A stretch of 64,000 nt of DNA, from assembly GCA_973895155.1 (NCBI GenBank), contig OZ316895.1, positions 19,978,803 to 20,042,802 on the forward strand, in the 5' to 3' direction. Below, piece after piece: positions 12,273 to 64,000 of this stretch. How positions within the stretch are numbered: the stretch's first letter is position 1; each line of letters starts with the position of its first letter. The stretch comes from Marsupella aquatica. Taxonomy: Eukaryota > Plantae > Marchantiophyta. A program made the position numbers and the translations under genes. The notes under the pieces were generated by a model that ran no database searches, had not been told where the DNA came from, and saw only the letters and a program-made list of their open reading frames with translations.

Positions 12273-12466
12273 AACTCCCCCTTGACTCACGTCTTGGGAG
12301 GGTTCATAACATTGTCTTTTCCTTACAAGTTCCTCCGCGGGAAGTTCAAGACAGTAGGGCCAAAAGACCCTCCCCCTAATGCAAGGGTTAACTAGAACTA
12401 AGCCGTAGCCGATAAGCCATCGGATGGAGTACTCATATAGAGACATTTTCTTGGTTAACTCTATAT

Positions 12467-15400: not shown

Positions 15401-15547
15401 GCCACCGGGTAGTTGAATCTTTACGGATCCAATCCCTAAAACTTTGCAAGAATGATTATTTCTCATCAAAACAGATCCGTTGATAAGAGTGTAGGATGAG
15501 AAAAGTTCATGCATATAGCACATGTGATACGAGCAAGCGGAATCCAA
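12467..15547 (-). pseudogene. Copia pol (protease, GAG-pre-integrase, integrase, RT, RNase H) with premature stops in the N-terminal part
   Basis: Protease DSACSYHM; LWHARLGH zinc-binding region; integrase FIDDYSR, RSDNGGEY, PEQNGVAE; RT KARLVAKGF, QMDV..SFLYG, LYGLKQSPRQW, LYVDDM; RNase H YVDADYAGD, CDSQSAI, KHIDVRYHFIR. Confidence 0.95.
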
Positions 15548-15659
15548 ATTCTATTGACAATCCTCAACTTAGGAAGTGGTACACAATGCAAATCCTTCAC
15601 TATCCTCTTCTTGAACAACTACTTGGGCTGAAGAACCGGCAACTTCCTTGAATGTGTCT

Positions 15660-17626: not shown

Positions 17627-17638
17627 GCTCTGATACCA
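17627..17638 (-). promoter_or_regulatory. Primer-binding site complementary to the tRNA-iMet 3' end
   Basis: The minus strand reads TGGTATCAGAGC, 2 nt inside the 5' LTR. Confidence 0.95.
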
Positions 17639-17640
17639 AT

Positions 17641-17963
17641 TGTGAGGAGAAATCAGATCAGGAAATACACTCCAAACATACACGTGCTCAATAGTTACGT
17701 GGTTCGCCTCAAGGTTGACTACGTCCACGGGAATACAAAGCTTTATTAACGGTTATGTGTGTACTCAAGCATCACCATAGCTCTCATCTCTTCAAGCTCT
17801 CATCTCTTGCTATATCATTGTGTTCTCTCTTGAGAACTCTCTTGTGTGTTCTCACACCACATAGAAGTTGAAGAGATAAGGACCAACTCTTCAACTAGGG
17901 TTTACTCTAACCCTAGTTAACATACTAACCATAGTTCAACCCAAGACTGAGTTAACCTCTACA
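17641..17963 (-). repeat. 5' LTR of copia element 1
   Basis: Near-identical to 11950-12272 and followed by the TSD ATCAC. Confidence 0.97.
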
Positions 17964-23524: not shown

Positions 23525-23704
23525 GATGGCTCGGTTGTAGCAATGTGCGCTCGCTTATTTTGTTCCACTTATCTCCACAAACTTCTCACCAAGCCCGGCT
23601 CTTACAAACAAATGAAAGACCAAGCAGTCTCATTGACAACACTATCGTACGACTGGATAGAACATCGGGAATATATATATGCAGGGAGGAGTCCCACGAG
23701 CCAG

Positions 23705-27322: not shown

Positions 27323-27860
27323 CCCCTATGCAATTGCACAGTTCACTATATATTACTCTGCCGAAGGGCAGAAAGGTCCAACCGGGAGACAGGTTCCCAT
27401 GGCAGAGCAACCCAAGAATTGCACACTGTGAGAATGGAATGGAATGAACATGTGTATAGTCGGGAATAGGAGTACATATAGTGGGACCAGGATGACCGGC
27501 TGGTCCGGTCGTCCGGTCAAAGGTAGAGTCTAACACTCCCCTTTGGATATATAGTGACAACTATATAGACAACATAGACTATACCTATTATATCATGTTC
27601 ATATGAAATACATGATATAAGTACAAGCGAGGTAGACTGCCTCGTTAAAAAACCTTTATCAACTCTAGCTTAGTAAAAACTCTACCAGTGTAGCAGAGAA
27701 AAATATGAGTGCTAAAGGAAAAAGAGTGCAGCCTAACAGTCCTCGTCGTAATAAATGTCAATGTTAAGTAAAGTTAGATGTTATAGTAAGTCTAGCTTTA
27801 ACATGTGTCTCATCAGTAAGTCGTCAGCAGCATATCATCAGCATCATGTCGTCAACATCA

Positions 27861-30800
27861 TCAAGTATCATGTGGAGCGGTAGCCTCCATGGTCATCATG
27901 CGTCGCACGCTCTGTAGTCTAATCGCCTGGTAGTGTCGGTGGTGAACTGATGGCGATAGTGATTTGGTGAAGAGATCCGCACAGTTGTCTGCACTTGAAA
28001 TCTGCAAAATGTTGATCTCTTTTCCATGTAACTCGTGGGTGTAGAAAAACTTTGGAGCTATATGCTTCACGCGATCGCTTTTGATGAATCCTTTCATGAT
28101 CTGCTGTATACATGTTGCGTTATCCTCAAAAATGTTAGTAGGTTTCGTTAGTGATGGTAGGCCGCATTTGGTGTTGATGTGGTTTATAAAGGATCGTAAC
28201 CAAACGGCTTCGCGACTAGCCTCATGTAGAGCTAAGATTTTTGAGTGATTCGATGAGGTTGTTGTTAGGGTCTGTTTCACGTTTTTCCAAGAAAAAATGG
28301 TACCCCCAAAAGTAAAAACATATCCGGTTTGGGATTTTGCGGTGTCAGTGTCGGAAAGATATCCGGCATCCGCGTATCCTATGAGTTCGTGGTTTGCACC
28401 GAATGGGTAAAATAACCCTGTATTGGTGGTGCCACGTAGATACCTAAATATGTGCTTAACTCCGTTCCAGTGTCTGGCTGTGGGAGTTGCACTATGTCTG
28501 GCTAGTAAGTTAACTGCAAATGCAATGTCTGGTCGTGTCTGATTTGCTAGATACATTAATGCTCCTATCGCAGAAAGATATGGAGTTTCTGGTCCTAATA
28601 TGGGTTCATGTTCTTCGCGCTTGCGAAAAATATCAGTATTGTTTTCTAATGAACGTACGACAATTGGTGACGTCAATGGGTGTGTTAGGTTCATATTGAA
28701 CTGTTTTAGGATCTTTTCGGTTTGTGTGGTCTGATGGAGCATCATGCCAGTAGGTAAGATCTCCAGTTATAATCTTAAGCAAAAGTTTGTATGTCCAAGG
28801 TCTTTCATCTCAAATGTTGATTTAAGGCAAGTAATAGTATCTTTGGTAATTTGGGGTGTCCCAAATATGTTTAAGTCATCAACATAAATGGAAACGATGA
28901 CATATTCATCATCCACATGTTTAATAAATAAACATGGTGTAATGGCATCATGGGAAAAACCCATGGCAATCATTTCATCAGTAAATCTTTGATACCATAC
29001 TCTGCCACTTTGTTTCAGGCCATATAATGCCTTCAATACACGGATAGCTAGTCCGCGGCGAGTATTTCGTACGATTGACACAGCGGTGACTTAATTATGG
29101 ATTACATGTGTAGATGATACATGAGGTGTAACTTGAGATAATTGTGTTAGAATCTTATGTAGATATGGGATATGCGATTTAGCGCCTTGAGCTAAAGCTC
29201 GGCGACGTTGCTCCAACTCTGGAGGTGATCGCATGTATAGACAAGTGTCTAAAGTGCCATATAGATATGCAGTTGCAACATCCAATTGTCGCATCTGTAG
29301 TTTATGGAAAATGGCAAATCCGATAAGATATCGGAATGTTGTGCTATCCATAACCGGTGAGTAAGTTTCATCGTAATGAATTCCCGGTTGTTGGGTAAAT
29401 CCTTTCCCTACCAGACGTGCTTTGTAGCGTACAATTTGGCCTTTATCATTTCTTTTGCGGATGAATGTCCACTTGTAGCCAATGAGATGTACGTCTTGCG
29501 GTGTTGGCTCAACTGGGCCAAAAGTGTGTCTGCTTAGTAGGGAATCTAATTCTCCGTTTATAGCTTTTTGCCATTCAGGCCAATCTGGTCTATTTTGGCA
29601 TTCTAATATCGATATTGGTTTGGGTGTTTCGTTTGTGATATGTGTTGCCACCATTAATGCAAAAGCATCGTCTATTGAAGTAGTATTTCTATCCCACGTC
29701 GCACCTGTGTGTGCGCAGTGGATAGAGATCTCTTCATGGGATGTAGATTTGGCAGTGGATAGAGATCTCTTCATGGGATGTAGATTTGGTATGATTGACA
29801 TCAGGTGAAGGTGGTATAGATGAACCATGCCTTCTCGGTTGTTTATCTTTTGATCCCAAAGGTCTGCCTCATTTGGCACGAGGTTGGGATGTACTTGCTG
29901 GCTCACTTGATAATTCGATGCGAGCAGATGTTCTCGCAGCTGGAATATGTGAGCGGGTAAGTTGTGATGTATCAACGAAAGTGTCAGGAAGTTCTTCCAC
30001 AATCTTGTGGAGTTGCAAAATTCGTTGAACTTCTTTCTCCCCTTGATTTGTTCTAAGGTCTTGCCAAAATGGCGGATGTCTTTCCCACTCCAAAGGTGGT
30101 TGTGGGTGTTCAGGGGTTATTAATGGTGGATAAATGTGTTCATCAAAATGGCAATCTAGGAATCTGGATTTAAAAACGTCGCCAGTTGTTGGCTCCATAT
30201 ATCGGATTATGGACGGAGAGTCAAATCCGATGTATATCCCCAACTGTCGTTGGGGTCCCATCTTGGTTTGTTTGGGTGGAGTAATGGGGACCATTACTTG
30301 GCATCCAAATGAACGAAGGTGGGATAAGTCTGGTTTTATACCATTAGCAATTTGGTATGGGCTATAGGTGTTAAAAGCCGATGGGCGGTATTGAATTAAT
30401 GCATTAGCTTGTAATATGGCGTGTCCCCATGCTAAGACGGGGAGTTTTGACTGCATTAGTAATGGGCGTGCAATTAACTGAAGGCGTTTAATGATCGCTT
30501 CAGCTAATCCGTTCTGAAAATGCACGTGAGGTACAGGGTATTGTACGTCTATGCCAAGTGATGTGCAAAAGTCATCAAATGTTTCGGATGTGAATTCCCT
30601 TGCATTGTCCACCCTTAGTGTCTTAATGGGGTGATCTAGGAATTGTGCTTTCACGCACAAGATTTGCACCAAAATGCGAGGCATAACCATGTTCCTCGTT
30701 GAAAGCAGTGTCACATTTGACCATTTAGTTGATGCATCGATTAATACCATAAAGTAGCGGAAAGGTCCGCTCGATGGGTTGATTGGCCCGCAAACATCTG

Positions 30801-31420
30801 CATGGATTATTTCCAAGAATTGGGGTATTTTAGTTGGCAATTTTGATGTCGTGGGCCTTGTTATTAATTTTCCGCGTGAGCATGCGGTGCATGGGGTGCT
30901 AGCTGGAATGTGGCGTGTATTGATTGGAATGCCACTTGAATTCTTAATTATTTTGCTTAGCATTAATTGGCCGGGGTGGCCGAGGCGTGCATGCCAAAGC
31001 GCGGGCAATTCACTTGTTTGAACATTGTTGTGCAGGCATTCAATATGAGTTACATAAAACCCGCAGGGGTACAAGAAAAGGGTTTCTTTAATGATATTCC
31101 CCGTAGGAGTATTTTCAACCAAGTGTATCACTTCCTGATCTCTGGTATCACCCGTCTGGACATGTAGTCCGTTCGCTCGTATATCTCTAAAACTGAGGAG
31201 ATTACGGGTTGTGTTCGGGGCGAAAATAGCAGATTCTATGTGGATAGCTGTACCCTGCGGGAGTCTAATGGAAGCTGGGCCAAAGCCCTCTTCTATTTGG
31301 CTAGGGCCATTGATAGTGGTTAGGGATCGACGTGAGGGTGTAATCTTGTGAAAAAGGTGTCAATCCCGGAGGATAGTATGCATAGTTGCGCTGTCTATAA
31401 TACATGTGCTGTGACTATTT
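27861..31420 (-). pseudogene. Bianca-like pol: protease, integrase, RT and RNase H fragments with stops and frameshifts
   Basis: CIIDSATMHTIL; [14 protein letters not shown]; HADVCGPI, LIDASTKWS, RVDNA.EF, QNGLAE; RYKARLVGKGFTQQPG, LYGLKQSGRVWY, IYVDDL; GYADAGYLSD, EDNATCI, KHIAPKFF. Confidence 0.93.
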
Positions 31421-31574
31421 AGATCTGGGGTTGTGGAGCTACTTGCCACTAAGTGTGCCTCGGGTTGGGCAGGTAGATCTGAAAAGTCTTGGAATGGGTC
31501 GCTGGACCCCATAAACGCCCCGTGGGTTTCACGGGGTGGTGGCCTAGAGGTTTGTCCATCTTGGATGGACCGTT

Positions 31575-32574
31575 AGTATAGATCTCTAAGGTGTTGCGGG
31601 ATTCTATAGTTTCTCGCTAGGTGGTTTGTCATGCCACATTCATGGCATTTTGGTCGTTCCCGTTGTTGTCGGGATTGTGACCAATCATTTCTGCGGTTGT
31701 TGTTATATGTTCTTCCATCGTTGCGTCCACCGCGTCCGCCACGTCCTCCTCGTCCTCCGTGTCCTCCACGTCCTTCTCGTCCACCACGTCCTCCACGTCC
31801 TCTAAAGGTCCGTTGGGAGTTATATTGTGGACGTTGGTTATAGAAACGCCCCCTATTGTGGGTGTTTCTTTGGTTGCCATTCTTAGTGCGCTTTATGCCT
31901 TGCCTCGATGTGGAGGGTTCAACATTTTCTATGTTATGGGTTTCATTCTGTTGTCCTGAGGGCAGTGTGCCCGCAGGTCATTTTCTAGAGTTTACTAAAA
32001 GGAGTTCTTGGTTTCTTTCGGTGACTAGGAGGTGGGCTATAAGCTCGGAGTATTGCCCGAACTTCATGTTTCGATACTGTGTTGATAGCCACACATTCGA
32101 TGAATGAAATGTCGACAGGGTCTTCTCTAGCAGATCCTTGTCTGTGACCGGCTCGCCACATAGTGCGAGGGTTGATGTTATTCTAAAGAGTTTGCTATTG
32201 TAGGCTGAAATAGAAGTGAAGTCCTGGACTCGCAGGTTTAGCCAGTCTTGCCTGGCTTTAGGTAGTTCGACCAGTTTTTGGTGGTCGAATCGGGTCTGTA
32301 GGGCTGTCCATAGTTCCCTAGGGGTCGATAGGTGCATGTATTGTCTCTGGATGAATCTATGGATATGGCGTCTCAGGAATACTAGAGCCTTAGATTCGTT
32401 GGCTTTAGTTAATGGGTCTGGTTGTGGTTCGCCGGCAAGGATGGGTTGAGCGAGGCCTATCGCAGGGAGTAGGGTTAGCGAGGTTAGGTTTTCTTTTAGG
32501 TTCATGGACCATTCTAGGTAGTTGTCGCCGTCTATTTCTAGGGCGGGGAAGTTGAGTTTCTCAAGGTTGGTCAT
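31575..32574 (-). pseudogene. Bianca-like Gag with RGG-repeat region and degenerate zinc knuckle
   Basis: The 198-aa ORF continues past a TGA (likely CGA) into RGRGGRGG repeats and CHECGMTNHLARNY. Confidence 0.9.
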
Positions 32575-33251
32575 CTCTAAGGTCCTGGCGTGCAGCGTTG
32601 TTGTGCGTGTTTATATAATATATATATAGTCAAAAGACAATGCACATTTGCCGCATGCAATGGTGGAGAAAGGGTTGATGAGAGCAATCTAGGTCATTGT
32701 CGAGTAAAGCGGGTTTTTGCAGAATTTAGGGTTTGCACTTATTAAGTTGGTTTTCTTTGTGAATGTATAACTGCAAGGTTTCCTTTGTATTATCTTTTTC
32801 CTTTGTTAAGCTGTGCAGTAATGAGGTTTTGCAGTTTATGCAGTTATTGGTGGTAATTTACTCGTGACTTGGTTAAGTGCATTATCTACTTTGTAAATGA
32901 AATCTCTTTGACGAAAGTTGCAATTAAAGAGGGTTTTGCGGTTATGTGCGGTTATGGAGCATGTGCTTAGCGGGTTTTGCTCGGTTCGACTTTCTCTCGA
33001 TGTTTTGAGCCTTCAAGTTGCGTTTTCTTCCTCGTTTGCCGCTTCGCTTGACCTTCTGATCTCGTTTGTTTTTCACTCATGGCCATCCGTCCTCAGGTCT
33101 TCTCCTCTCTACTCGCTTCTTTGTGGCTTATGTCTTCGGCTTATTTCGCTGCTTTCGTGTTCCTGTTGCTTCGCAAGCATGTTGCCTCGATTCTTGATTT
33201 GCGAAAAAGCTTACCTAATAGTCACGTTCCTTCGCAAAATTGTTCTTATTT

Positions 33252-33345
33252 TTGCCTGGTACTCGATCCAGGGTGCTCGATCCTTCTTTTCGCCTGGTAC
33301 TCAATCCAGGGTACTCGATCCTTCTTTTTTGCCTGGCACTCGATT
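33252..33345. repeat. ~39-bp tandem repeat (about 2.5 copies) in the Bianca 5' leader
   Basis: gcctggtactc(g/a)atccagggt(g/a)ctcgatccttctttt is repeated. Confidence 0.85.
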
Positions 33346-34107
33346 CGATCTCCTTTGCGCTTCTTTCCCATTTTCGATCACTTTTCGAGATCTACTCGTG
33401 TCATCTCGCTTCGGCCTGCTTCGGTCCTTATGAAATTCTTGGGTCCTTTCATCTTCTTCTATCTACTTTGCTTTCAACTTATGGCTTCCCTTGCAAGTCA
33501 TCATGTTTTGCCTTTATACGTAGTCTCGGTTTTGGTCCCTTTGCGAATCTCTCCGTCTCTTGCCTTCGGCATCTCCCTGTCATTCGTTTGGCATCATTGA
33601 TCCTTGGTGATTGATGATTGGGGCCATGCTGATCTTCATGAGCTTTTTCTTCTATCCTTCTTTATCCTCTTTGTCTAGACTTAATGTGTGCTCGTCCTTT
33701 CTCTCGGAATTTTCTCTGTGCAGTAATTTCCTGCTCCAACAGTCAAAATCTCTTTCCTTCTCCCTCGCGGCCTTATCTGTGTGTGGCCTGATCTGCTTCA
33801 ATCTTCCTTGTAATCTGTTAATGATTCAATGCTCCTTATCGCCTCCGATCTCCATAAGCCTTCGAAGGTTTCCTTCTCAATCTCTTCGATGCTTCATCGA
33901 GACCTTCTTTCTCTTAATCGTCGGAGGCCAGATCGAAGTTTTTTTTTTCTGTTTTCGAAAAGTTTGTATTCACGCTTCCTTTGGTTCACTTTCCTAAGGA
34001 AAAACGAGACCCATGTGCTCCATCTCTTATCACGCTTTGTTTTCCATTCGGCATAAAAAAAATTCAATTCTCCATGGTCTTCTTTTCGGCTCCGCTGGCT
34101 GAGACCT

Positions 34108-34120
34108 CGTGCTGATAACG
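34108..34120 (-). promoter_or_regulatory. Primer-binding site for a half-molecule tRNA-Ile primer
   Basis: The plus strand reads CGTGCT-GAT-AACG directly next to the LTR, matching the anticodon arm of eukaryotic tRNA-Ile(AAU) (CGTGCT-AAT-AACG). It lacks the TGG of a 3'-CCA-type PBS. Confidence 0.75.
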
Positions 34121-37100
34121 TGTGAGAATGGAATGGAATGAACATGTGTATAGTCGGGAATAGGAGTACATATAGTGGGACCAGGGTGACCGGCTGGTCC
34201 GGTCGTCCGGTCAAAGGTAGAGTCTAACACACACCTCATTTTGTAGAAAAGAAAAATTGCTTAGCGCCAAATTAGCTACACCGCTAAGTAAAACACAGGC
34301 TTTATCAGTTAACAGTAGTAAAATAGATAAGCATCAGCGGATAGATAGTATCTAAATTGCGTAGGCAGAGAAGAGTCTCATTTTCAATAGAAACTTGATT
34401 TTGAGAAACAGAAGTAGAAGGAACCTAGAAGCGCAATGTAAGTCAAAAGCTTTTAGTTTGATAGGACTCACCATTTCAGCAATGTGGGACATGTATGGCA
34501 ACACTATGATTTACGGGAAGGCTGTGACATTCCATTAAATGATGACAATTTTTGTGCTTTAGGGCCCAGTGTCCAAAAAGCTAGGCAAGGTAGAGATGAG
34601 CATAGAGTGTTGGCCTAGAAGCGCAATTGTGTAATCCATCAATGCAGGCATCCATGTCGGCCAGTTGGATTAGGGCGATATATGTTCACTTTCTATGTAC
34701 AAGTTAGCTATGTGGTGTACCAAATATGGGAAGAGGCTGGATCCTAGTTGTTTGGCATCAATGGGCTGGAATTCATGAGCGAGGCAACCAAGAGAGAACT
34801 TGTAACTCTGCCATGAATGAATGTTGGGCAATAAAAGTAACACAAAACAAGGGAAGAGGAACCAGACAGATATTAGGGTTCCATAAAATGATCACCAGTT
34901 CAACATATCGACAGAAGAAAGAGGGGACTAGTAACGCTACTAGTGGAGGAAAGAGAAGAAATGGAGACAGCTATAGAATAACTCAAGCTCAAGACACCAA
35001 AAACGAATGAATCCATTGAGGATGACAACTCAGAAGCAGAACTAGGAGCAGAACCAAATGAATGGAAGGACGACCAGGAAAGTTATGTGTGGTTCTGTAA
35101 CTAATAACAGTTAATAGTCAGAAACAATCAACAAGTAGAAATAATTAACAATCAGCAATTAGTCTTAGTTGAATAAAAGATTTACAAAACTGAATAAAGG
35201 GTTTGGCAGTTGCAACTGTCAACAGTTAAGTCAAAGACAGGTATGTCTGGACCAGAGTAGAAAAGTATAGGTCAGTTTGGAAGAAAGTGATAAAGGTCAT
35301 TTGTTGTGCAAACTTTCCAGGACCAGAGACTAAAGAGGAAGCCTAGGAAGAGGTCATGCCGGATTGCTAGACCTGGAGGTAGAAATGGAAGCCCATGGAA
35401 GAAAAACCATGTAAAAGAAATTGATTCAAACTCTTGAATAGTTGATGTTGTTGAAGCCTATTTGCAAAACTGCAGGGAGCATTTGATTACATAGTTTATG
35501 TTTCTTGAATGCAAGTAGGTATAAAGGAAAGAAATTGATTGTGAAGAAAATATGGCTAGAAATGCTCACATTTGATAATGGGAAACATAATGATGTGGCT
35601 GGAGCGGTTCTTAAGAAGGATTGACATTATATTGCATGTGAAAATTGTAATTGCAACCCATTAAGAAATCTTTTAAGTTGGAAGGATTAGAATTTTGCAA
35701 GTAATGTTTAAGGAAGAAGACCCAAAGGAGTGAGAAATGAAAAAAAAACCCACCTTTGCTTGGTCATTTAAGCCAAGGAACTGAAATTGAAAACTTTATT
35801 GAGTTTCTTATTTTACCCTGATAAATGTTGTAGTAGTTGAAGAGTTTCTCTACTCGTCATTATTTTAAAATGTGTAGATTAAATAGAAAATTCAAATAGA
35901 TACCAGAAGATACTAATGTATCAAGCACAACTCATCCAAATGTTATTTTCTTTCACATCTATTTTACAACTTTATAAATTATTTGTTTATTTGAAATGTT
36001 ACTTTTTAGTTTTCCATTATTTAGTTAGGAGGTTTAATTGTTTTTCTTTGCCTTACATCAAACACAAATAGTCAAATTTGGTTCTTCTTGCATAACCATT
36101 GTTCTTGTTTGTGACCAATATTGCTGATGTGGCTACACAAGCATCCAGGAATTTTGGAATGAGCTTCCCATGGGGTCTGTAAAAAGTGCAACTAGCAATT
36201 GAGTTTTAAAAGTTTAAATTTTAGTTTCTTCCCCATCTAACATTGGACTCTGACTTATGGATGTGCTGCTAGAAGCGGGGAATGCATGAGATTGCCTTGG
36301 GGAGATATTGGAGTGTCAGGCTCATTGTGAACTGCTTGTTTGTGTGACAGACTCATTTGATATATGCTTGCAAAGTTCTGCATTACTTGTTGATATAGGT
36401 CATTGTGTTGATGTAATGGCCTCATTTTCTGCTATACTAACTCCATTTGTTTAGTGTAAGTTGCCTGGCTGCAAAGTTGTGTGTGGTTGAAGGATGGGAG
36501 AGTGCAATGAAGGAGAAGTGATATTTGTTGAGGGAGGGGAGGTTAGCTCGGAGACCTTGACATCCTCTTCCTGGATGAGCTTACCCAACCTTACGGCTTT
36601 AAGTTATGGATCTGAGTTGTCTTTTGTGTTTAATGATACAAATTCCACTGGACAGTCTTCATGTACAATGCAGTTGTGTTCACCTCACAATGAGCCAAAT
36701 TTTGTGCCTCTTAGTGACCCAATTGAGACCCAATGCAGGTTGAAGTCCCTGTTGAAGTAAATGTCCAAGGATTTAGGGTACTTGCTGACCCTTCCTTGTG
36801 GGATGCAGGGAAAGGGAAAGAGAAGCATGAATCTATCTGAGCACAATTATTCATGGGCTACTAATAGTGCTAACTTGCTAAGGAAGGTATGACAAATGGG
36901 CACAAGTAGCCCACTTGGAGATTTGTCTTTCAAGATGCTAGATGAGCTTCTTAGAAATGTTTTATTTCCCTGGTTTTGTAACTAGATGGCCAGCAATGTC
37001 CTTCATCTTTGCTAGTGGGCAAGATGAACATTTACAACTGTGTTATCAAACACTTGATAGAAATTTCAATATCTTCAAGCATGAATGTTTTATGAAAACC

Positions 37101-45981: not shown

Positions 45982-48058
45982 TCAAGCTCCGGGAACAAAG
46001 CTGGTGGCATAGGCCCAGGCGTTGTTGCTAACGGGATCGGAGAGGTGATCCAAAAGGTTCTCAACAGGTCCCTTTCCGGTGACAATGGCTTGAACAAAGA
46101 ATCCAAACATAGAGAACATGGCGAGTCTTCCATTCTTGAGCTCCTTCACCTTCAGCTCGGCGAAAGTATCTGGGTCACTAGCCAAACCCAAGGGGTCGAA
46201 GTACTTGCCTCCGGGGTACAATTCTCCTCCCTCTCCCACTCCGGGAAGACCGTTCTGGCGGTATCCCTCAACCAAACCCATGAGCACGACCTGGACGGCC
46301 CAAACTGCGAGGATGCTCTGAGCGTGCACCAGGTTGGGGTTTCCCAAATAATCCAAACCTCCCTCGCTGAAGATCTGGGATCCGGCCTTGAACCACACAG
46401 CCTCCTTGAGCTCCACACGGGAGTATTTCACGAGCAACTCTGGAAGGACACAGCCCAAGGCTCCGAGCATTGCCCATCTGCTGTGGATGAGCTGAAATTG
46501 AACCAAACACACATGGAAAGGCTTAATCGAAGGAACAATCAGACAAAACCTGTACACCCAACTACTATCACCACATGTCTACCGAAGTCTGATCTTTGGC
46601 CTGTGCAATGATTGCATGCAAGAAACAAATAAAGAAACAAAGGTCGACGACAATTCGTGATCTTCACATCACATGCCTCAGGATCTCAAGCTTATTGTGC
46701 ACCTCTCAAGCCATCTTCTGGCCATCTCTGGCTTACAAAAATGGTACATTCACGTGTTTTGGGTGTCAAGAAGTAAATAAACTGAGCGTCTCCGGCTCAA
46801 TCAACAATGACGAACACAATGATTAACTGTAAACCATGGTGAAGTTGGAGACCGAAATATTGACACGCTGACACTCACTCTCTGCCTGTAGAATATGGCA
46901 ATCGGGTGTACAATAAAGCAAAAGACAAATGACTGGCTAAGGACGCCTGGCCAATATGTATGACGGGAGAAGACGAACAAATCCGCTAACAAACAATAAG
47001 GAGGGCTCATATAACCAGGCAGGGAATGAAGTACAAAAGGAGACGGGAACGAGACATTACCTCCAAAGCACGGTTCTTGGCGAAAGACTCGGGATCGGCA
47101 GAGAGCCCAGCAGTGTCCCAGCCGTAGTCACCTGGAAACTCGCCCTTCAAGTAAGAGGGAGTCTGGGCGGAGAAGGGGCCCAAAAATTTGGGTCTGTCTG
47201 GGCCATACCAGAAGTCAGCATCCTGCACACAGAAAGAGCCATAGCTAAGGCATAAGGCAACACGAGCTGCCTAAGTAGAATCCGCACTTTGACTTTTCCT
47301 AACACACACGACAATTTGAGTTCTCTCACTTTAAGGGTATTATCTACCCATTCCTAACTAGCAAATTTTACATGATGTATTGCTTCCCGCGATAACTCTA
47401 CATAATAGTTGCAAGACATCCCGGCTCTAACAATCAATGTCATTTCCACCCTACCGATCCAAGTCCCAAATTACCCTTTCCATGGATCCATTACTGACGA
47501 CCTCCAGCGTATTCAAGTCTGTCAATGGCCACCAAGCCTACTCGCACCGACGACCCGGCCAGAAAATCCTACTCATTCGAGTCCTCTCCGTGGGAAAACA
47601 ACTTCACCCATGTACCAACACTTCTCCATTACTTTGCTTTAGAGTATTTCGCTTCCTGTCATTAATTAACACAAGAACAAGACCTACACCTCTACCAAAT
47701 TCAGAAACTGAGAGCTCAATTTATTGGTCAGCTCCCAGATGCCGGCCAAGGGTCTGCCCTTTAACGTCCCCTCGCAACAGCGAACCCCCACACCCCTGAG
47801 ATATGGACCACAAATGACCCTACACTGAGACAAATGATCCCTTCGAGAAAGGCATTCTGTCGACAAAGAAACAACTCAATGATGTACCACAATCACATTA
47901 CAATTGACGACTCCCCTACGCCAAGAAACACTTACCATGGAGACACGGGCCTTGCAGAGGGTGACGCGATCCCTGAGAGCATTCTGGGGTGCTGGTGCAG
48001 CACCCAAGAAAGCCGATCGGCTCACAACATTGGTGGAGAGTAGTGAAGTGGCCGCCAT
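45982..48058 (-). CDS. LHCB3: Light-harvesting chlorophyll a/b-binding protein Lhcb3 with transit peptide; exons 48058-47936, 47222-47061, 46491-45982 (264 aa)
   Basis: [101 protein letters not shown] and a terminal PGA are Lhcb3-type signatures. Introns are phase 0 with GT/AG ends. Confidence 0.93.
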
Positions 48059-52489: not shown

Positions 52490-53814
52490 TGGTGCCGACA
52501 TGAGAATCAACCTAGAGGTGGGACGGGAGTCATTCCAGCAGCTCAGTGCCTTCCAGGCATCAACATAAGGTTAAAGCTATTTATCGGTCCGGTTGCAATA
52601 TTGATTGAAAAGCCCCGAACACAGCTCAGTTCTCTGGGGAGAAGGAGGGTCTGGTGGTTTTGCATTGCTTTTTGCATTAGCCAGGTTTTGCCGGGGGTTT
52701 TCCTTGCAGAACTAGGAGAAAGCAAGAAGTAGAGAGCCTTGGAATTATTCAAACCTCAAAACTGTTGTCCAGCCTGCAGAGTCCTCGAGTTGGCTTGTTC
52801 GACCCACTAAGATGTCCCCTGCCGTCTCCGATATTGAACAATTGAAAGTACACAGGAGGGCCCTGCCATCTCATTAATAAAAGAAACACAAATGGTTAAG
52901 AAGCTCTTCCCTTTAGCAGCATCCTGCCATGCCATCTCCGAAACCAATGTGACAAGAAACACAAACGATTAAGAAGCTCTCCTCCTAATCGAACGAGCAA
53001 CACGCCCAACTAGTAGCATTCCGAACAAGCAGTCCCCTGAAAGAAAAGCATCTTGAACGAGTAGCATCACGCACATCCACTCAAACTAACAGCCCGATCT
53101 CACCTCCTTCATCGCCTGCCACCTCGCAGGCTCAAATTGAGTTTACTATTCGTACTCAGTATCTACCAGAATATCTCCTCAAACGTTTAATTAATAAATA
53201 CTAGAGGGCTCTGTAAGAAAGACAACGGCTAATCGATCATAGCAGTATATGATTCTCATATAGCACAACTGATCTATTATCAATCCTTCAGGTAGGATAC
53301 GGCACAGCTAATCCACCACCACCACAATTCAGTGACTAGTGACTGCTGAATGCACATATCGTGATATACCTTCATCTGGTGATATCCTGCAGCTCGTTTT
53401 GAACAGTTCCGAGTGCAAGATTCCAGTGGGGCTATTAGGAGGATGCTCTCCCAGCGGAGCTAATAGGACTCTACACATGAGTTTTGATTATATCCCAACT
53501 ACCCTGATAGAGATGACGACCAAAATAGATCTTGCAAAAAAAAGAATTATATGCTATCTCCAGCTTGTATTTGCCTCATCCCCATTTTTTGTTCACCCTC
53601 ACTTTGTCCTTATTTTTGAGTCTAGCTTTGTCTTTATATGGAGTTGCGGTTTAGAGGCTTCACTCTAGACCCTAGCCCTCGAAAGTAGCTTATGTTCGCG
53701 ATCTACTAGTCAGATACTCAATTCCCTTCAACAATGTTAACTAGTTCAGACCATTTGCTCACAAATATTGGACAGGAGGAAATCTACTCTTCCCCAAAAT
53801 CTTTACCCTCGGAA

Positions 53815-53905
53815 TTCTCAAATGACCCCAGTAGAGAACTTCAAAATCTCCCAAAAACAATACCCTCAAGGTCCTCAAATGACCCCAGTAGGCAACTTCA
53901 AAATC
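53815..53905. repeat. Short direct duplication with ~57-bp period
   Basis: ctcaaatgaccccagtag..aacttcaaaatc x2. Confidence 0.8.
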
Positions 53906-55141
53906 AGCAGTGCAATGTCCAGCCCATTAGTGGCAGCTTCAACTTAAACCTAAAATGTAACACTATTGTGCATGTCTGGCACGTCTGTAGCCACTGAGCA
54001 CTCAGCAAGTTCTTCCAACTCTTGCAACACCGCAAAATTGGACGAATAGTTCATCGACCCCCTCTAGTATTATTGGTAACTTCTAGATAAAGTGACTTGC
54101 TAACCCTAGGGTGGCTTAAGATGACAGTCATAGTCTGAGTGTGTGTTCTTTGAACATAAACAGAGGTGACGACATTCAAGCCCGCTACATCATTTCCAGA
54201 GATTCACCTTGCCCCCAATCCCCCAATCCCCATCTTCCAATTGCACCCCTAACTTCAGTTATTTTTTAGCCATGGTCCACATGCTTCACTCTAGACCGTA
54301 TGCAATGAAGATTAGCTTTTGATCGATTGCGACTAAGTCAGATTGATGTGTAAGATATGTATGAGTGCCATCCCTTGAGGGAGGTTTTCAAACATTCCGC
54401 TTGCTGCAGGTTTAGTCCTAGTGCTCACTTTGGATCTGCCCGTCCCCACCCACGCAAGTCTCACGCAAGGTCCGCACTGAGGTCTCATTGAATCAGGCTT
54501 GCTAACACTTAAATAAGGCAGTTCTTAAGTGTGTCAAATTGCCTCACAGTTTAAGTTGGTTCACAAGATTTTTAGGAATACCGGGTAACCTGTTGGTTCC
54601 CTTGCGCTTCATTATTTCACCATTAGTTGCCCCATGTAAGCAACTTGGTGTCACCTGCTCATCAAACTATGTGCATGAAAAATACATCTTTTTCTTCCCT
54701 AAAATTGTTTGTACTATATTATTGGGATGTGGAGGGACGCTATTTGGATTGTTGCTCACACATAGGAATGAGTATGCTTGTTTTTGCTCCCGGAGATGTA
54801 GTTTTTTAATCAATTTAATGACTACTCCACCCCATGGCTTTTAATCAAGTCCTGCGGACCACCCCACACATTCTCTCTTTCTGATCTATGGGTGAATGTT
54901 GTCACCACTTTCCCACTTCTTCTACACAACCCACCATGCCAAAATTATGAAGTTGTAGTGTGTAGTGAAATTTGTTAGCCACAAAGATACACTAGGGGAA
55001 CGGAAGCTCAAAATATTGATCACAAAAGAACCACACGTACAAAGTTTTAACTGTAAAACCGAATCCATATCTCTTGATGCAAAAAGTGTGCACACTACAA
55101 AGACAACCCAACCTCTTGTTGTGCTTCTAACACCTACACCG

Positions 55142-55276
55142 ACACTGAGGACACAACCATGATCCACTAGGAATCACCTGCAATGATGGTGTCAAACATG
55201 ACATGTGCCATCCTCTAGAACATTTATCACAAATCAACATAGTAGTTGTTCCCTAAGCAGATCCACACAACATACA
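55142..55276 (-). pseudogene. PHD finger (C4HC3) at the C-terminus of the gypsy integrase
   Basis: Reading through one TAG gives CMLCGSA*GTTTMLICDKCSRGWHMSCLTPSLQVIPSGSWLCPQC, in the integrase frame, with a terminal stop at 55127-55129. Confidence 0.9.
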
Positions 55277-55279
55277 TTT

Positions 55280-56500
55280 CAAGCCAGCACGAACATGTGC
55301 CAAGCTTGGATCTATTGTACCATCAATGTTGGGAAGGTGACATGGTGCACAGTTGCGCACATGATCCTTCCAAACCATACCATTGCGTCCCTCCAACATC
55401 AGGACACCAGAAGGCAACACTTCACGCACATGTAAGATTGTCCGGCCTGCGGTCACATCAAGTGTCGTGGGTGCTGTCTACTGCAAATAAACATAATCAC
55501 CAGGATGAAATCGTTGAATGCTTGCACGATAACCTCCTCCACAAATAGTGGCATACCTCAAAGTATCACGATGTTGGGCAATGGCAAGGTTGTCAAAATC
55601 CATGGGCATCACTCTCTGAAATACCCGTGCTGTCTCTGAACACACCTTGACCCAAACATCAGGATCATCCAAGTTCACAACTAGTGCAGCATCACGACGA
55701 ATAGCTGCTGGCAAATCTGGCTCTCTACCATAGAGCAAAAAGTAAGGTGAGAAGGATGCAAGTGATGCTTGCCGACTGAAATGGTAGCCCATCGCTAACC
55801 AAGGTAGCTAGAGATCCCAATCTCCCAAATGACCAACCTACAAGCCATACTTACGCAATCATCTCTTCACAGTTTGCACAACTCTCTCAGCTAATCCATC
55901 TGCCTCAGGATGATCACGAGAGGTAGTACGATGATCAATCAGAGCTTGTTCACACAAACTCCTAAACTCTCCACGGAACTCAGTTCCCTGATCAGTCAAC
56001 ACCTCAGCTGGTGCTCCAAAATGACTGAGTACGCGATCCAAAAATGTAGTAGCAACTCCTCCATTGGCTTTATCTGGCAATGCCACTAGCTCAATCCACT
56101 TGGAGAAATGCTCCACCATGACCAAAACATACCGATTATGGCGTTGGGTAAGAGGTAATGGACCAGCAAAATCCAAACTCCAACGATATCCCAAACCCTT
56201 GATCGGTAACGGGTGCAACTGGGGAGTGGGAGCATTAAATGATGCTCTCACTCTATCACATACCACACACTTAGCTATCAACTGTTGGACATGAGTGTGC
56301 ATACCACACCACCAATACTATGTCTGCAGCAAGCTATAAGTGCGCTTCACACCAAAGTGACCCAACTCCTCGTGTGCATGTCGCACCAAATGTACTCGTT
56401 GTGATGGTTTTGGTACCACCAACACACTACCATCATGCAGTACTCTCAAAAGATAGTTTCCCTCCCATCGAAACCTCTTGGCTCTCTATAGAACCCTGTC
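55280..56500 (-). pseudogene. Gypsy integrase (H2C2 zinc finger, DDE core, C-terminal region)
   Basis: HEELGHFG...CVVCDR, WSLDFAGPLP, VMVEHFSKW, VLTDQGTEF, HPEADGLAER, FSPYFLLYGREP, F.PGDYVYL. Confidence 0.93.
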
Positions 56501-56758: not shown

Positions 56759-58207
56759 CTATTGACTGGTACATGGATTGCGGCTTAATCCATCTGCATC
56801 CAAGTTCACTTTTCCAGGCCTATGCACCACCTGGAAATCATACTCCTGTAACAACAATGCCCATCGTGCAAGCTTCCTTGTAAGCTTGTCAGACTCCATT
56901 AACCACTTAAGAGGCTGATGATCAGTGATCAAGGTGAAGGGATTACCAAACAAGTAGCAATGAAAGTGTGCAACAGCCCACATTGCTGCCAAACACTCTC
57001 CCTCATAAGAGCTATACTTAGCCTCTACTGAATTGTTTGATCTACTGGCATAAGCCACAACAAACTCATTCCCCTCATCATCCTTGTGAGTCAACACTGC
57101 TCCAAGTCCTACTCCACTCCAATCAGTGTGTAGCTAAAATGGTCTGCCTGAAATGGGTCTTCTCAAAATAGGGGATGATGCCAACCTTTGCTTCAACTCT
57201 TGAAAGGCATGCTCCTAGTCATCACCCCAAATCCATTCCTGATCCAACTTAGTGAGTATGGTCAAAGGTTTAGCAAGCTGGCTAAATCCTTTAACATACC
57301 TCTTGTAGTAGCTCGCCAATCCCAAGAATGCACAAACTCTACTCACATTAGTAGGACAAGGAATCTGTGTAATGGCCTCCACTTTAGTCTGTTGTACACC
57401 CAATCCCCCTGGGTATATAGTGTGGCCCAAATACTCAATCTGGTCTTGGAAGAATTTACACTTGCTAAAATGGAGCCCATGTGCTCTCAATCTTTCCACC
57501 ACAATCTGCAAGTGTTGTTGATGTTCTTCCACAGTAGAAGAATAGACCAAAATATCATCAATATAACATCTGACAAAATCCAAACCTGCAAGGATTTGAT
57601 CCATGACTCTCTGGAACTCAGCTGGTGCATTCTTCAACCCAAATGATAAGAATAACCACTGATACAAATGATCTTTGCCATAAGAATCAATCCCCCAAAA
57701 TGTTGTCTTGGACCTGTCAGCATGCCTAATTGGAAGCTAATGGTACCCTACCCTCAGATCCAATGAACTGAAAACCTTTGCATGCCCCACAACATCAAAG
57801 ATCTCCTCAGGTGTGGGCATGTCATATCTATCAGATTTTGTCTGGCGATTAATGGGTCTATAATCACCACACATGCGCCTATCTGTGTAATTGCCATGCA
57901 CATCCTTCCTGGCTGGCAGCACTGTGGCAGATGCATACTCCCCATATGAAATCTCCACCAATCCAGCCTCCAACAAATCTTGAGTTATGCTTTGAATCAG
58001 AGCTCTCTCCATATCACTGTAATGGTATGGCCTATGAAAGATTGGCGCATCACTAGCCAATTCAATCTGAATACCAATACCCTTTAATGTCCCCAAATCC
58101 TTCATGCTAAATGCAAAACAATTCCAGTAACTCTTCAAGAATCGATGCATGCGACGTCTCTCCTCCCTTGTCAACTTAGGGCCAAGCTGTGGTTCCCAAC
58201 TCTCCAC
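56759..58207 (-). pseudogene. Gypsy reverse transcriptase and RNase H
   Basis: YIDDILVYS, KCKFFQDQIEYLGH, FLGLASYY, PF*LHTDWS, VAYASR, EGECLA..WAV, TDHQPLKWL, HRPGK.N.DADGLSR. Confidence 0.95.
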
Positions 58208-58439
58208 TAAATCCCTAATATCTCTTTGTAGGGTAGAAGAGATAGCCGATGATTGCTATTTAGCAGTAGATTGAGCAGTCCCTTCCTACTCAACAATCTG
58301 TCCAGCCTTGACCAATCCTGCCATAGGTCCATGGACCGTCTGCTCACCCCCAACTGTGGTCAGTACTATCTTAGTGGACCGCAAGCTCACCAAGGGACAA
58401 TCAGTAATTCTAGCAGAGCACATCCACAACTGTTTAGCT

Positions 58440-59400
58440 ACTCCCAAGCTGATAATCCAAGTCAAACAATTCAAATCCATTGCTTGACCAAGAACCTGGC
58501 GCCGCAAATCCTATGACACAGAGGCAACTGCAGTGGTGCTAGTCAAAAATCCCATAGCACGCTCCCTCTCATCAGCAATAGGCTCCACTAACTGTCAGAG
58601 AGTTGTGTCCCACACAAGTCCAGGGCCACCTGCTTTGAATGCATATGAAGCAGAGTGGCTTACAAGAGTGGGTAATGCACAACATGGGCGTCCAACTACA
58701 TTGACCACTGCCAATGGAGTCTATCAGGTTGGGTCACACCCTGTGCACGACGCCCTAGATGCAAAATATCATCCACCACTAAAGCTAGTGAGCGTGGAAT
58801 GTTGTCAAATGCACGCTTCAGCACCTCACATGGGATCAAATTAGTCCACCACAAGCCTAGACGATGTGCATGAGAACCCACACGTGCAACATCCAATAAC
58901 ACAACAGGTCCAATCCAAGACCTCACCTGGTGAACACTGGCAACAATCCGACTATGATCATCACCTAACAATGGCACATTCTCCAAAATGTATGTTGGAG
59001 ACTATGTCTGATGTAGCTAGAGATGACGCAGCACCCGGAACATCTCCCAAAATAATACAGAGCGTGGATCATGAAAGCCATTCCCAACGCCAGCTCTAGA
59101 TTGGCCCTGACATGGCCAACCAGCAATCACCAAATCAATGGGGCCAACACAATGCAGATGATCCGCCCCCAGCAATGAAATATCAGCAGGTAGTGCATGC
59201 TGATAACCACGAACAGCATCCACTGGCAGCAACTGTGGATATCTATCCACCAGCATAGCCACATGTTGCAATGAGACCCTCCGTGCTGTCTCATCTGTCA
59301 CCACATACAAATAACGATGCACAGGAATTTTTGCCTGAAGAACAGCAGCCAATCCAGTGTTAATCCCACCAAAAAGATCCAATAAATAAATATCCTCCGG
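58440..59400 (-). pseudogene. C5 cytosine DNA methyltransferase domain (DNMT3-like) inside the gypsy polyprotein
   Basis: Motif I LLDLFGGI (~59370), IV IDLVIAGWPCQGQSRAG (PCQ at 59107-59115), PRSVLFWE, VI ILENV (~58980), VIII SHAHRLGLWWTNL, IX EPIADERERAMGF, X RRQVLGQAMDLNCLTWI. No introns; four stops and one frameshift near 58715. Confidence 0.9.
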
Positions 59401-60180: not shown

Positions 60181-60881
60181 AACACTAGGTTTAAACCTAG
60201 TCCTCTCAAATGCAGGGCGTGCTGGTAAATCCACCAACCTCGCTGCTGCATCCCATGTCTCACTAGTAGCAGTAGGCGGCATGGTCTTCACTGCTTCAAC
60301 ACTGCAAGCTGCTTTTGCATGGGAAGCAACCACTGAAGGTGCCCTCAAAGAGTGTAGCTGCCAATCTGAACACTTCTGCAGGACCAACTCCCAAGTTCAA
60401 CATGTCTGTCGCTGAAAATAATGGGGTGCGTACCATGGCAGTAGCCGCCCCCAGCAAGGTACCTGTCATCCTTGCTGCATCACTACCTGATTCTGCCAAC
60501 TTACCCACGCCAGGGTTTGTCCGAACCGGGTTCATAGAGGCAGTCTGAACTGTCTCTGACAATGTAAAAGATTGAGGAAGCTTTGTTTGCCGACGTGCAT
60601 CCCCCTCTGTGGATCTAACTCCACTAGTGCTCCTCGGGGCTCAAGAGCTTTGGCTGCCCCACATGTCAAACCTGCTAATGCATCAATATGTGTAGTGCCA
60701 CACATGAATCCCATGGTGGCAAGGTCTCCATCAGCTCCATAAGATGTGGAAGGACCATGGGATGTAGAAGGTCCATAGGATGTAGATGCCCCATCACCAG
60801 AAGTAGGTCTCACCTGGGAACTAGCCATGGCAGCTAGTTGTTGCTCCAATTGAGCAATCTTAGCATCCTTTGGATCTATGG

Positions 60882-62198
60882 TTATAGCAGGGGCAGCATC
60901 ACCTCCCTATCTCCCTGCATGTGGCATGCCACGACCACGTCCACCACCCTACCCCCTCCTCTTCCTCTTCTCTGATCATGTGTACGGCATCCTCCTCTCC
61001 GTAACTCAGGATGGAGTAAGAAACACCTATCCTTGGTGTGTCCAGGAGCTCCACAATGATCACACTGTCGTTGATCAAGCGCTGATGCTCCTCTTGATCC
61101 TCTATGATCTAGGCAATATCTTTGTGCATGATCCCCACCACAGGTCCAACATCCTGACTGTTGTCTAGCATAAGAGGGCATAGGTCTCTGGTTGGTAGAC
61201 TCTCGTGCAGTAGGCTTCTTCCTCTAGCTCTTTCGTGTAGTAGGCTATGGTGTGGATGTAGATGCAGCCTTTGGTGCTTCCTTGCCAAATTCGGAAGTCA
61301 CCACCTTCTCATTCACCATATTGAGCTCAATGCGCTTAGAAAGGGTAAAAACAACTGCTAATGTGGGATCTGCATCCCTAAGTAGAGTGACATCTCTCAC
61401 TCTGCGTCGCAATTCTTTGTCCAAAATTGCATACCAAAACTGGACTGCTTGAGCCTCTGTCACTCACTTGGTGACAGTGATCAATCTGCGCATATGAGTG
61501 TATGCCTCACGTAGACTCTCTCCAGTCTTGCGCTGGAACTCCTAGAGACCCTTCAACTGATCAGTTCTCACACCCTGATAGTTCTGCTTTAGTACCTCAA
61601 AGAATTCCACCATAGGGTTAAATGCTGGTGCAACTCCTGTTCCTGTCACAATCACACCGGTAGGAGTAGCGGTGGATGCTGCTGGAGTGCTGCTGGTGGA
61701 TGGTGTGCCACTCTGGCTAGTGCTGCTAGAAGAAGCAGCAGCTGTGGCAATGGGTTGGGAAGCCGCACTAGTGCCATAGGTGATGGACACGTAATTAGGC
61801 GACCAATGATGCCTCCATGCCTCAATCTCAGCCAAATGAGCCTTCCGAAACTCATGGTAGTCATCCATGGGTGTCCCCTCCAAATGCTGAAATAATCCCT
61901 TCTATGCCATGAAAGGGGTAAACAACATGGCGTTACGCAATGTCTGCATATTGCACCACGTATCAAACTCCTGGATGAAGTCATCTAGATCAATTGTGCC
62001 AACTGCACCAGAGTATCGTCGTGGGCCCTTCGTAGCCTCGTACATCTCGTCCATATCCCACAACAAAGGTGCAACCACCTGATGACGAGGAGAACTGGTC
62101 ACTAAGTTCTCGTCGAAATCACTGTCTGAAGCTGCACTGCTGACTGCTACCAATGCCGTTGGACGAAAATGCGCCCCATTTCGAGTGAACCAGTTCAT
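60882..62198 (-). pseudogene. Gypsy Gag with two zinc knuckles
   Basis: Four ORF pieces in one frame: RYSG..LDDFIQEFD, F.RKTGESLREAY.HM, CWTCGGDHAQRYC and CDHCGAPGHTKDRC followed by RG-rich sequence. Confidence 0.8.
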
Positions 62199-64000
62199 CG
62201 TCCATCGGGTAACCCAGCAACACCAGAAGAATCCGTGGTGACCAACCTAACCTAATCTATATGCTAACCCTAAGGGCAATCTATCTCTGTCAGCAACACA
62301 AGCACTCAGCATGGTGTGTTGGGCATCACTCCAACATCACCAGGAGAGAAATACGTAGCACAACTAGAATGTCTGGTTGCAAACCATCACTCCTATAGAA
62401 TCAAGCGCCCACGCCAAACTAACATGGCGCATAAACAGGAAGCACATGTGGAGAGGATCCAATCAACAAGAAGATCAATAGTGATCATACATCAATCAAA
62501 CAATGTTCATAATGTTTAATGTGGGGCCTTCATAATAGGCCTCTCAATGTTCAATGTCGTAGCTAAGGATCCATGCACAATTGGTTCAATCCATGCATCT
62601 AGATGGATTCAGAAGCATCAAAAACCTTTAGGAGCTTATGATTTGGCCCAAAATGGCAATCTAAACAAACTAGAATGTGTATAAAATGCCTAAATGCTCA
62701 TTCTATTAACATCAAAGTGGAAATGAGTGTGTGTACACAAGAGCACTTAAGAACCACATAGTTGAGCGCATGGGGAAGGAATAGCTTTGGGATGGGTGAC
62801 CTCTCACTTGTAGTTCTGCACCAAAATGGCCGCTTCAAAATCAGCAGCTTGCAACTACTCCTCACGTACCAGCGGCTTACTGGCCCGCCCGCTCCTACTC
62901 CGCCCTCACGCCCCTCGTCCCGAGTTGCCTCGAAGCCTCGAAACATCGAGATGAGCCAAAGAGTGAGCCCGCAACGCTTCGATTTCACAACATTCAGAGT
63001 TTCCCCGAGAGTTCCGCCCCCTGTTTCCCTTCACAAAAGTTCGCGGCGGAGCAAAGTACAGTCCGTCTCCCGCATCGACGTACTGTCTTCGCAGATCTGC
63101 AACGAGCGTCGGTTTGGCAACATTCAAACTTTGCCTTCACAAAACGCATCAACATTCCTGGCGGGTGGATCCTTCCAGATCGGCGCACGACGGTCGCTTC
63201 GGATCAGTGCCAACAACGTACAGTCCGCACCGCCAAATCAGCAACATGTGACAGTCATTTCCTTCACAAAAATGTGGATGTCGCTTCTACTTGACAGCCG
63301 TCTCGATTACACTTAGCGCCGCGTCCCTTCGCGAAACCATTGGAGCCCGATTTGGCAACATGCAATAGTCGTTTCCTTCCAAGAAATGCAGGTTCAGTGT
63401 GCGGAGTGCATCGGTCTTCGGCAAGACTACAGATCCAGCAACATTTGCCGGATCGATCCCTTCACACATATGCGGGCGACAGCAGCACATTGTCCAATCG
63501 CAAATCAGCAGATCAAACATTCACCCCCCACAGAGCACCGCACTCAATCTAGTTGCAGCCAATTGGTACACAAACGATTAGAGCCACAGACAAGCTACAG
63601 ATCTGGCAAACCTCCAACTCCAGATCCGCTCAAGAATGAAACTCACACGATCTCAACTTGGATCCACATACCGGCGATCCAATCAAGCAATACAATGCAC
63701 GATCCGAGATACCACGAACCATCGTCGAACACAATCAAACTGAAAATCAAAGCTCTGTCCAACAACAACAGAGTCCGATGCCTGATCTTTCAATGTAATC
63801 TCAATACAATCGGCACAATGATCCCGGTCCACAATACCCCATCAATCCCGCACCGATCCGATCACACATGTATGTCAAGCCAACGCACCTTGCACTACTC
63901 AAGGAATCCACGTTACACAAGCGGAGCTCACAGCCACCATAGCCACACTCAAGCTTCACTCTCTCCAAGGCTCAACATTGAAAGATGACCTTTCAATGCC

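Follow-up and report, generated by a model that had tools for sequence, protein, structure and literature searches.

A DNMT3-type methyltransferase domain carried by a gypsy-type retrotransposon family of bryophytes, with a conserved stop codon behind the enzyme

The window, by which is meant the whole stretch of 64,000 nucleotides of Marsupella aquatica DNA analysed here, contains a dead copy of a gypsy-type retrotransposon in which a DNMT3-type cytosine methyltransferase lies between the protease and the reverse transcriptase (RT). It is as good as certain that the methyltransferase is a stable domain of a retrotransposon family. Notable are the presence of such elements in land plants, the intact reading frames of Marchantia and a conserved stop behind the methyltransferase; according to the accessible part of a 2019 review, DNMT-carrying elements of this kind are absent from land plants (PMC6338049). 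We give a probability of about 0.55 to the full chain, in which the dead copy would derive from an element with Gag, protease and DNMT3 in its first open reading frame (ORF1), a leaky stop leading to Pol, methylation of the cDNA and targeting by a PHD finger.

Anatomy of the window element and identity of its methyltransferase

The order protease-RT-RNase H-DDE integrase is that of Ty3/Gypsy elements, as judged from Pfam matches in the window and its relatives. The features, in the direction of reading, are as follows.

63636..64000, minus strand: high-copy stretch, approximately where the 5' A repeat of relatives lies; depth is again at element level
60990..62054, minus strand: Gag, a capsid-like region and two zinc knuckles; decayed, with 4 stops in the stretch
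61151-61113 and 61064-61023, minus strand: the Gag zinc knuckles, from motif mapping
60340..60989, minus strand: Gag-protease linker, with three frame changes relative to the uninterrupted relatives P0007 and P0009
59764..60174, minus strand: aspartic protease, active site LLDTGAQP at 60105-60082
58430..59391, minus strand: DNMT3-type C5 methyltransferase with motifs I-X in their canonical order, interrupted by 4 stops and one frameshift
58719..58721, minus strand: frameshift within the methyltransferase, a lesion of the window copy
58259..58429, minus strand: C-terminal tail of ORF1, after the methyltransferase
58250..58258, minus strand: conserved ORF1 stop, TAG followed by CAATCA, a CAR-YYA context; predicted read-through site
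57401..58120, minus strand: RT, RVT_1 8.8e-28, YIDD at 57565-57554
56831..57226, minus strand: RNase H, RT_RNaseH 1.8e-34
55691..56410, minus strand: DDE integrase with HHCC zinc finger, Integrase_H2C2 1.8e-14, rve 9.5e-14
55130..55285, minus strand: PHD finger at the integrase C terminus, PHD 6.7e-10, one internal stop

The window Gag shares 56% identity with residues 1-358 of Marchantia Mp4g09160, and the Retrotrans_gag profile gives weak matches in 7 of 14 relatives (best 3.5e-4). One frame is common to Gag and protease in the related loci L003, L004, L028 and L056. On the frame running from the protease to motif VIII, with X at stops, Asp_protease_2 is below its cut-off (0.0066); in the second frame RVT_1, RT_RNaseH, Integrase_H2C2, rve and PHD each exceed theirs. 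The window copy is dead, with 19 stops in its two main frames (4 + 15), the frameshift at 58720 and the three frame changes between Gag and protease. A preliminary description of this DNA had placed one frameshift near 58715, which agrees with the frame change now located at 58720, and no intron is needed to read the methyltransferase; its list of stops was incomplete, lacking those at 59002, 58595, 58511, 58256, 57134, 56486, 56318, 55838 and 55808. The copy is truncated just past the PHD finger, at about 55137, where depth drops and 7 contigs of run X4 continue with different sequence. The high-copy stretch at its other end matches the A repeat of L056 weakly, at 69% identity over 71 nt (E 0.16). 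The 64-kb window gave no LTR pair for the DNMT3 element and no tRNA or Rfam match.

The host is a land plant, as had been deduced from the Lhcb3 gene: an Lhcb3 exon shares 92% identity with Calypogeia fissa and 89% with Marchantia, against 82-84% with ferns, a lycophyte and angiosperms. This gene, which has introns, lies at 45982-47200 on the minus strand, and the exon groups with Calypogeia at 98/97; on this one gene the host is likely to be a leafy liverwort. Two copia elements are also present. One, at 11950-17940, is young, its 300-bp LTRs being 98% identical and its pol having an open stretch of 854 codons; the other, at 27427-34236, has a 116-bp direct repeat (97%) and several long ORFs. 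The exons at 22009-23554 (minus strand), one of which has no Pfam match, resemble by eye those of a ferritin-like desiccation-related protein. Those at 286-8425 (minus strand), again with one exon lacking a Pfam match, resemble a P4-type ATPase; they are preceded by a 639-codon low-complexity ORF, which contains a 66-bp tandem repeat (7306-7556) and may be an unusually long N-terminal extension of this gene. Downstream of the truncated element, 53268-54035 is a medium-copy repeat with 57-bp units.

The methyltransferase was initially described as a complete, non-permuted, DNMT3-like C5 enzyme between protease and RT, and each part of this holds. All motifs occur in canonical order on the minus strand: I (DLFGGI, 59379-59362), IV (GWPCQG, 59121-59104), VI (LENV, 58986-58975), VIII (AHRLGLWWTNL, 58869-58837), IX (ERERAMGF, 58570-58547) and X (RRQVLGQAM, 58504-58478). 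Once stops are read as X, the protease-to-motif-VIII frame matches Pfam DNA_methylase at 2.9e-10 (40.5 bits, cut-off 22). The best solved structure for the window domain is DNMT3A (1.2e-6), and a profile of 57 relatives searched against the PDB finds DNMT3A at 4.3e-21, DRM at 4.5e-10 to 1.9e-8, HaeIII/HhaI at about 2e-6 and DNMT2 at about 6e-5. An alignment-based model of the stop-free relative L032 (pLDDT 91.5) superposes on DNMT3A, DNMT3B and DNMT3C with a TM score of about 0.71, and the top Foldseek ranks are all DNMT3. The window domain is thus of DNMT3 type; DRM, DNMT2 and bacterial enzymes are more distant from it.

The methyltransferase of the family is probably an active enzyme. A different role, in which the domain would serve for DNA binding or as a structural module, or act on RNA, with little DNA methylation, seems improbable. 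In its favour, identity of the L032 model to DNMT3A is only about 22%, and an algal relative, KnitGypsy-Dnmt3, gave no methylation in yeast, a result that its authors called inconclusive (PMC5890265) and that is the chief reason for caution about the full chain; however, the modelled fold is complete, and families that are less than 50% identical all retain PCQ, ENV and motifs I, VIII, IX and X.

Distribution of the family and selection on the enzyme

The 20 matches of a search among long proteins include 16 Marchantia polymorpha models and 1 from Sphagnum fallax. Among the best 120 of 636 matches to short proteins, the named eukaryotes include Marchantia polymorpha, M. paleacea, Riccia sorocarpa, Calypogeia fissa, Sphagnum troendelagicum and S. 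tenellum; ferns, lycophytes, hornworts and seed plants do not figure among these best 120 of 636, which leaves absence from those groups unproven. M. polymorpha has at least five full-length Gag-protease-DNMT reading frames (Mp4g09160, MpVg00370, MpVg00540, Mp5g06330 and Mp5g06860), annotated as hypothetical, of 1278-1281 residues and 95-99% alike by domain. The literature covered, outside which lay most subscription papers and Repbase, held no description of these elements in bryophytes or of their stop; for the five Marchantia gene identifiers it gave nothing, a match to MpDNMT3 concerning the host gene only.

A metagenome scan, in which 211 of 242 stretches were confirmed, yielded 80 loci (L001-L080) with Gag, protease, DNMT, RT, RNase H, integrase and PHD at fixed spacing, and in the tree their methyltransferases group with Sphagnum proteins. 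Contig depth is equal over the window methyltransferase and RT in all four runs; over the element it is some three orders of magnitude above the flank, a depth that is not a copy number. Related copies in the 80 loci and in bryophytes thus hold the domain in the same position, as the preliminary description supposed. The possibility that a host DNMT3 retrocopy inserted once into a dead element has next to no probability, being ruled out by the shared position in dozens of copies from several genera, the even depth and an intact element, L081.

L081 is a 9285-bp contig, 49% identical to P0007 at the methyltransferase, that was assembled as a circle (127-bp terminal overlap) in a cyanobacterial genome assembly; related proteins carry the labels Obscuribacterales and Leptolyngbya. 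It is probably foreign eukaryotic DNA contaminating bacterial bins. Viral contigs held no relative, the one match there, L082, being weak (31%). Older and more decayed related elements adjoin the younger family in L066 (916-6135, reverse, and 18836-20386), in L056 and L078 (about 5600-7730) and in L050 (1-2034), which suggests clustering or nested insertion.

The methyltransferase is under purifying selection. Between the window and the loci, dN is 0.30 and dS 1.56 for the methyltransferase, and 0.19 and 1.54 for RT; among the decayed loci, pN/pS is 0.67 for the methyltransferase versus 0.44 for RT. Of 77 copies, 75 retain the catalytic Cys and 74 the motif VI Glu.

A wider group emerged from a search of 50%-identity representatives, which returned 2427 proteins. 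Domain placements, taken from the best 150 of these 2427, show many proteins with DNMT between RNase H and integrase and a few open protease-DNMT-RT frames. Polyproteins of the form RT-RH-DNMT-INT-PHD provide 30 complete rows among those scanned (for example P0024, P0025, P0362, P0383, P0409, P0432, P0435 and P0439); the C-terminal region of P0024 and P0025 resembles an adenine methyltransferase by eye and has no Pfam match. A FastTree methyltransferase tree of element-borne domains only (136 of 195 rows, near-duplicates removed) splits the two domain placements at 99 and unites, also at 99, the window domain and those of Marchantia, Calypogeia and Sphagnum, within a 19-row group (98) in which DNMT is joined to RT in only one annotated gene model. 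Open DNMT-RT frames occur in P0085, which falls outside the 19-row clade and was removed from the close proteins by a motif filter, and in P0364, of a related lineage. The RT trees, in agreement, join the window, Marchantia, the loci and L081 (99/98) and keep the RNase H-DNMT-integrase type as a second group.

The conserved stop and the route to Pol

In the family, the methyltransferase is followed by a stop that is almost certainly conserved and not a product of decay. DNMT and RT share a frame in 39 of the 50 copies with both ends, and in 33 of 36 copies with standard spacing the stop falls in one column; most related loci also keep the methyltransferase itself in one frame, unlike the window copy. 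In the junction alignment the stop is TAG (36 rows) or TAA (18) in 54 of 58 rows; the remaining four comprise two secondary alignments of copies with an insertion, a sense codon, and the row of the window, where the shorter linker was misaligned. The matching stop of the window, at 58258-58256, precedes the conserved Trp in front of RT by 19 codons (16 in the loci), while the stop at 58288-58286 in the ORF1 tail is decay and is absent from most other copies. For Marchantia the junction is known here from proteins, and for the window's own family from 40 of 492 variant rows listed.

The intact element is especially informative. Its whole Gag-to-PHD frame has exactly one stop, TAG CAATCA at the conserved place. 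The same TAG CAATCA stands at the matching place in a decayed third family (L066, reverse strand), and is therefore common to the window, L081 and L066, three of four families, although the flanks cannot be aligned. In the family of L001-L080 the stop is followed by CAACCC (5 of 6 letters), strict CAR-YYA occurring in 1 of 54 junctions. Among 869 decay stops, CAR-YYA follows 1 and CAA 17; the window decay stop at 58597 also has the nine-letter read-through motif, and by shuffling this motif alone is only modestly improbable, with a P of 0.025 for the window and 0.054 for L066. CAR-YYA is the read-through signal of the TMV type (PMC2194720, PMC2754532), for which read-through of 6-32% is reported in plants (PMC2754532).

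Protein records agree with a boundary at this stop. Nine Marchantia proteins end 98 residues past motif X and one Calypogeia protein at 100. Of 107 close proteins, 102 end before RT, 64 of them with tails of at least 88 residues, and the rest of these, with shorter tails, may be fragments; the five that run on into RT are annotated gene models with a shortened linker. With a conserved in-frame stop between methyltransferase and RT, Gag, protease and the enzyme all belong to ORF1, of which the enzyme forms the last part. The initial view of the domain as an integral part of Pol thus stands in that it is a fixed part of the element in 80 loci, and falls in that the stop separates it from RT and assigns it to ORF1. 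ORF1 is accordingly Gag-protease-DNMT3, and RT-RNase H-integrase-PHD is likely made by read-through, which there is good reason to favour as the route to Pol.

Pol might instead have a start of its own, by re-initiation at an ATG, from a sub-genomic RNA or by splicing, with the methyltransferase still in ORF1. In the L001-L080 family, 51 of 54 junctions have CAACCC followed by an in-frame ATG at +7, with which re-initiation fits as well, yet the window has no ATG after its stop and the first Met after the stop of L081 is residue 117, 67 residues into an RT that starts at about residue 50. Splicing might be read from the five annotated gene models that skip the stop, but these cut differing lengths, leaving 38-106 of 143 residues, as ab initio models do. 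In Candida Tca2, which has an in-frame stop, a promoter at the junction was tested (PMC2194720); against a separate start in the present elements stands CAATCA, kept in three families despite unalignable flanks. We regard a separate Pol start as unlikely and read-through as the better account.

The leaky stops of TMV, SIRE1 (pol-env), MuLV (gag-pol) and Tca2 are likewise in-frame (PMC2194720), and the CAR-YYA context of TMV is strict in the window, L081 and L066 and matched at 5 of 6 letters in the L001-L080 family. The window family differs from all of these in that its stop comes after the protease and an accessory enzyme and before RT. A protease on the Gag side recalls avian retroviruses.

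Element ends, known relatives and a proposed mechanism

Related copies have split direct repeats of the form A1..B1-A2-B2: their 5' end carries A, of about 310 bp, and their 3' end B-A-B, in which B measures about 115 bp. Neither these repeats nor the element ends were found in the window copy, whose 3' end is missing. Both B copies were seen in 7 loci, two of which represent one insertion, and some 12 others end after the first B (A1..B), so that there is no single identical LTR pair. These shorter copies (L011, L014, L017, L020, L023, L024, L030, L052, L057, L059, L077 and L080) arose either by recombination between B repeats or as a second product of integration; where both ends were checked, 3 of 4 have an exact 4-bp duplication. 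The ends of the relatives are TGTCA..YGACA (TG..CA) with a 4-bp target duplication, which is exact in 5 of 8 cases (two being one insertion), has one mismatch in 2 and is unscorable in 1. B1 is preceded by a G-rich tract. In the locus family and in L081 alike, the B-A junction has the sequence ACA-NN-TGTCA, which looks like two integrase ends joined together. A second ACA-NN-TGTCA junction, with a short tandem of end-like sequence, lies outside the main element at about 160-215 of L009. Assignment to DIRS/Ngaro was rejected because rve and Integrase_H2C2 stand in place of a tyrosine recombinase, and so was assignment to Troyka, described with CG..CG ends and a 3-bp duplication and in animals only (PMC12440569), since the relatives have TG..CA ends and 4-bp duplications.

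The closest published counterpart is KnitGypsy-Dnmt3 of Klebsormidium nitens (de Mendoza et al. 2018, PMC5890265), which bears out the algal precedent for a retrotransposon-borne Dnmt3 cited in the preliminary description. As far as its accessible text goes, it likewise has an intronless, non-permuted Dnmt3-type domain in a gypsy-type element, under purifying selection, with DIRS-like repeats in the order A1..B-A2-B, whereas its DNMT is in one ORF with RT and RNase H (PMC5890265) and the window family has a conserved stop between them. The host is an alga and not a land plant, and the comparison is by published description alone; no K. nitens record is among the named matches of the protein searches. 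SymbioDIRS-Dnmt3 of Symbiodinium, for which de novo CG methylation was shown in yeast, is also a retrotransposon-borne Dnmt3 with split direct repeats (PMC5890265), in a tyrosine-recombinase DIRS element where the window family has a DDE integrase. The EpiLTRs/DAM-LTRs (bioRxiv 10.64898/2026.05.21.726589) are LTR elements with methyltransferases and a chromatin reader too, but differ in having a DNMT that is sister to DNMT4, an adenine methyltransferase and a chromodomain, and in their hosts, Euglena and Cymbomonas; the accessible text of that preprint mentions 'streptophytes (Gypsy-DNMT3)' without naming land plants. The DNMT3 enzymes of bryophyte hosts (PpDNMT3b, MpDNMT3b) share the non-permuted catalytic domain (PMC6453930; 10.1101/2021.02.12.428880) and are separate cellular genes, whereas the window domain is embedded in a polyprotein.

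In the mechanism that we propose, most ribosomes would stop after the methyltransferase, and occasional read-through of the TAG, at a few percent, would yield RT-RNase H-integrase-PHD. Termination at this point would give a methyltransferase-to-Gag ratio of roughly 1:1, and a particle would hold about one methyltransferase per Gag and far fewer copies of RT and integrase. As the preliminary description also suggested, the protease would free the domains of the polyprotein, and the methyltransferase copies would methylate the new cDNA within the particle or the pre-integration complex, so that the copy would land already methylated. The PHD finger on the integrase might steer it to chromatin with unmodified H3 tails. 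Its best matches include CHD4, UHRF1, KDM5A/B, PHF21A and AIRE, proteins whose PHD fingers read unmodified H3 tails. Enzyme amounts at the level of Gag are not required across the wider group, given the open DNMT-RT frames and the placement between RNase H and integrase in related lineages.

Methylation of the element's own cDNA was proposed in the discussion of PMC5890265, and we rate it at even odds that this cDNA would be the main substrate in the present family. Alternatively, an abundant methyltransferase may act in trans on resident copies or host DNA, damping bursts of transposition or reshaping the methylome. Gag-level enzyme would far exceed the need of one 9-kb cDNA, and a gain through slowed transposition has been raised (PMC5890265). 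The window copy is also depleted in CpG, at a ratio of 0.32 as against 0.82 in L081, and in run X1, 248 of its 414 majority differences are A or T in the window and G or C in other copies. This is the pattern expected of methylation and deamination, in which host and self methylation are indistinguishable, and host MET1, CMT and DNMT3 can explain the methylation (PMC6453930, PMC10952607); moreover, the methylome of K. nitens is described as ordinary and plant-like (PMC5890265). Action in trans therefore seems rather unlikely, a little more so than a separate start for Pol, and methylation of the element's own cDNA is the reading that we carry forward.

A more far-reaching version, in which an ancient bryophyte lineage would keep DNMT and Gag at about 1:1, set the dose of RT and integrase by a leaky stop, combine a DIRS-like B-A end with a DDE integrase and insert fully pre-methylated copies that the PHD finger aims at silent chromatin, is offered only tentatively and is doubtful as a whole. 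The split direct repeats together with the DDE integrase point to a replication route outside the standard LTR model, and the conserved stop predicts enzyme amounts at the level of a coat protein and a few percent for RT. Since 2018 it has been an open question how a methyltransferase of its own benefits a retrotransposon, because the known carriers are in algae with few genetic tools; the full-length frames of Marchantia polymorpha make it testable in a model plant with methylation mutants. If the far-reaching version is true, this would be a transposon that silences itself before the host detects it, and a model plant, Marchantia, has intact copies.
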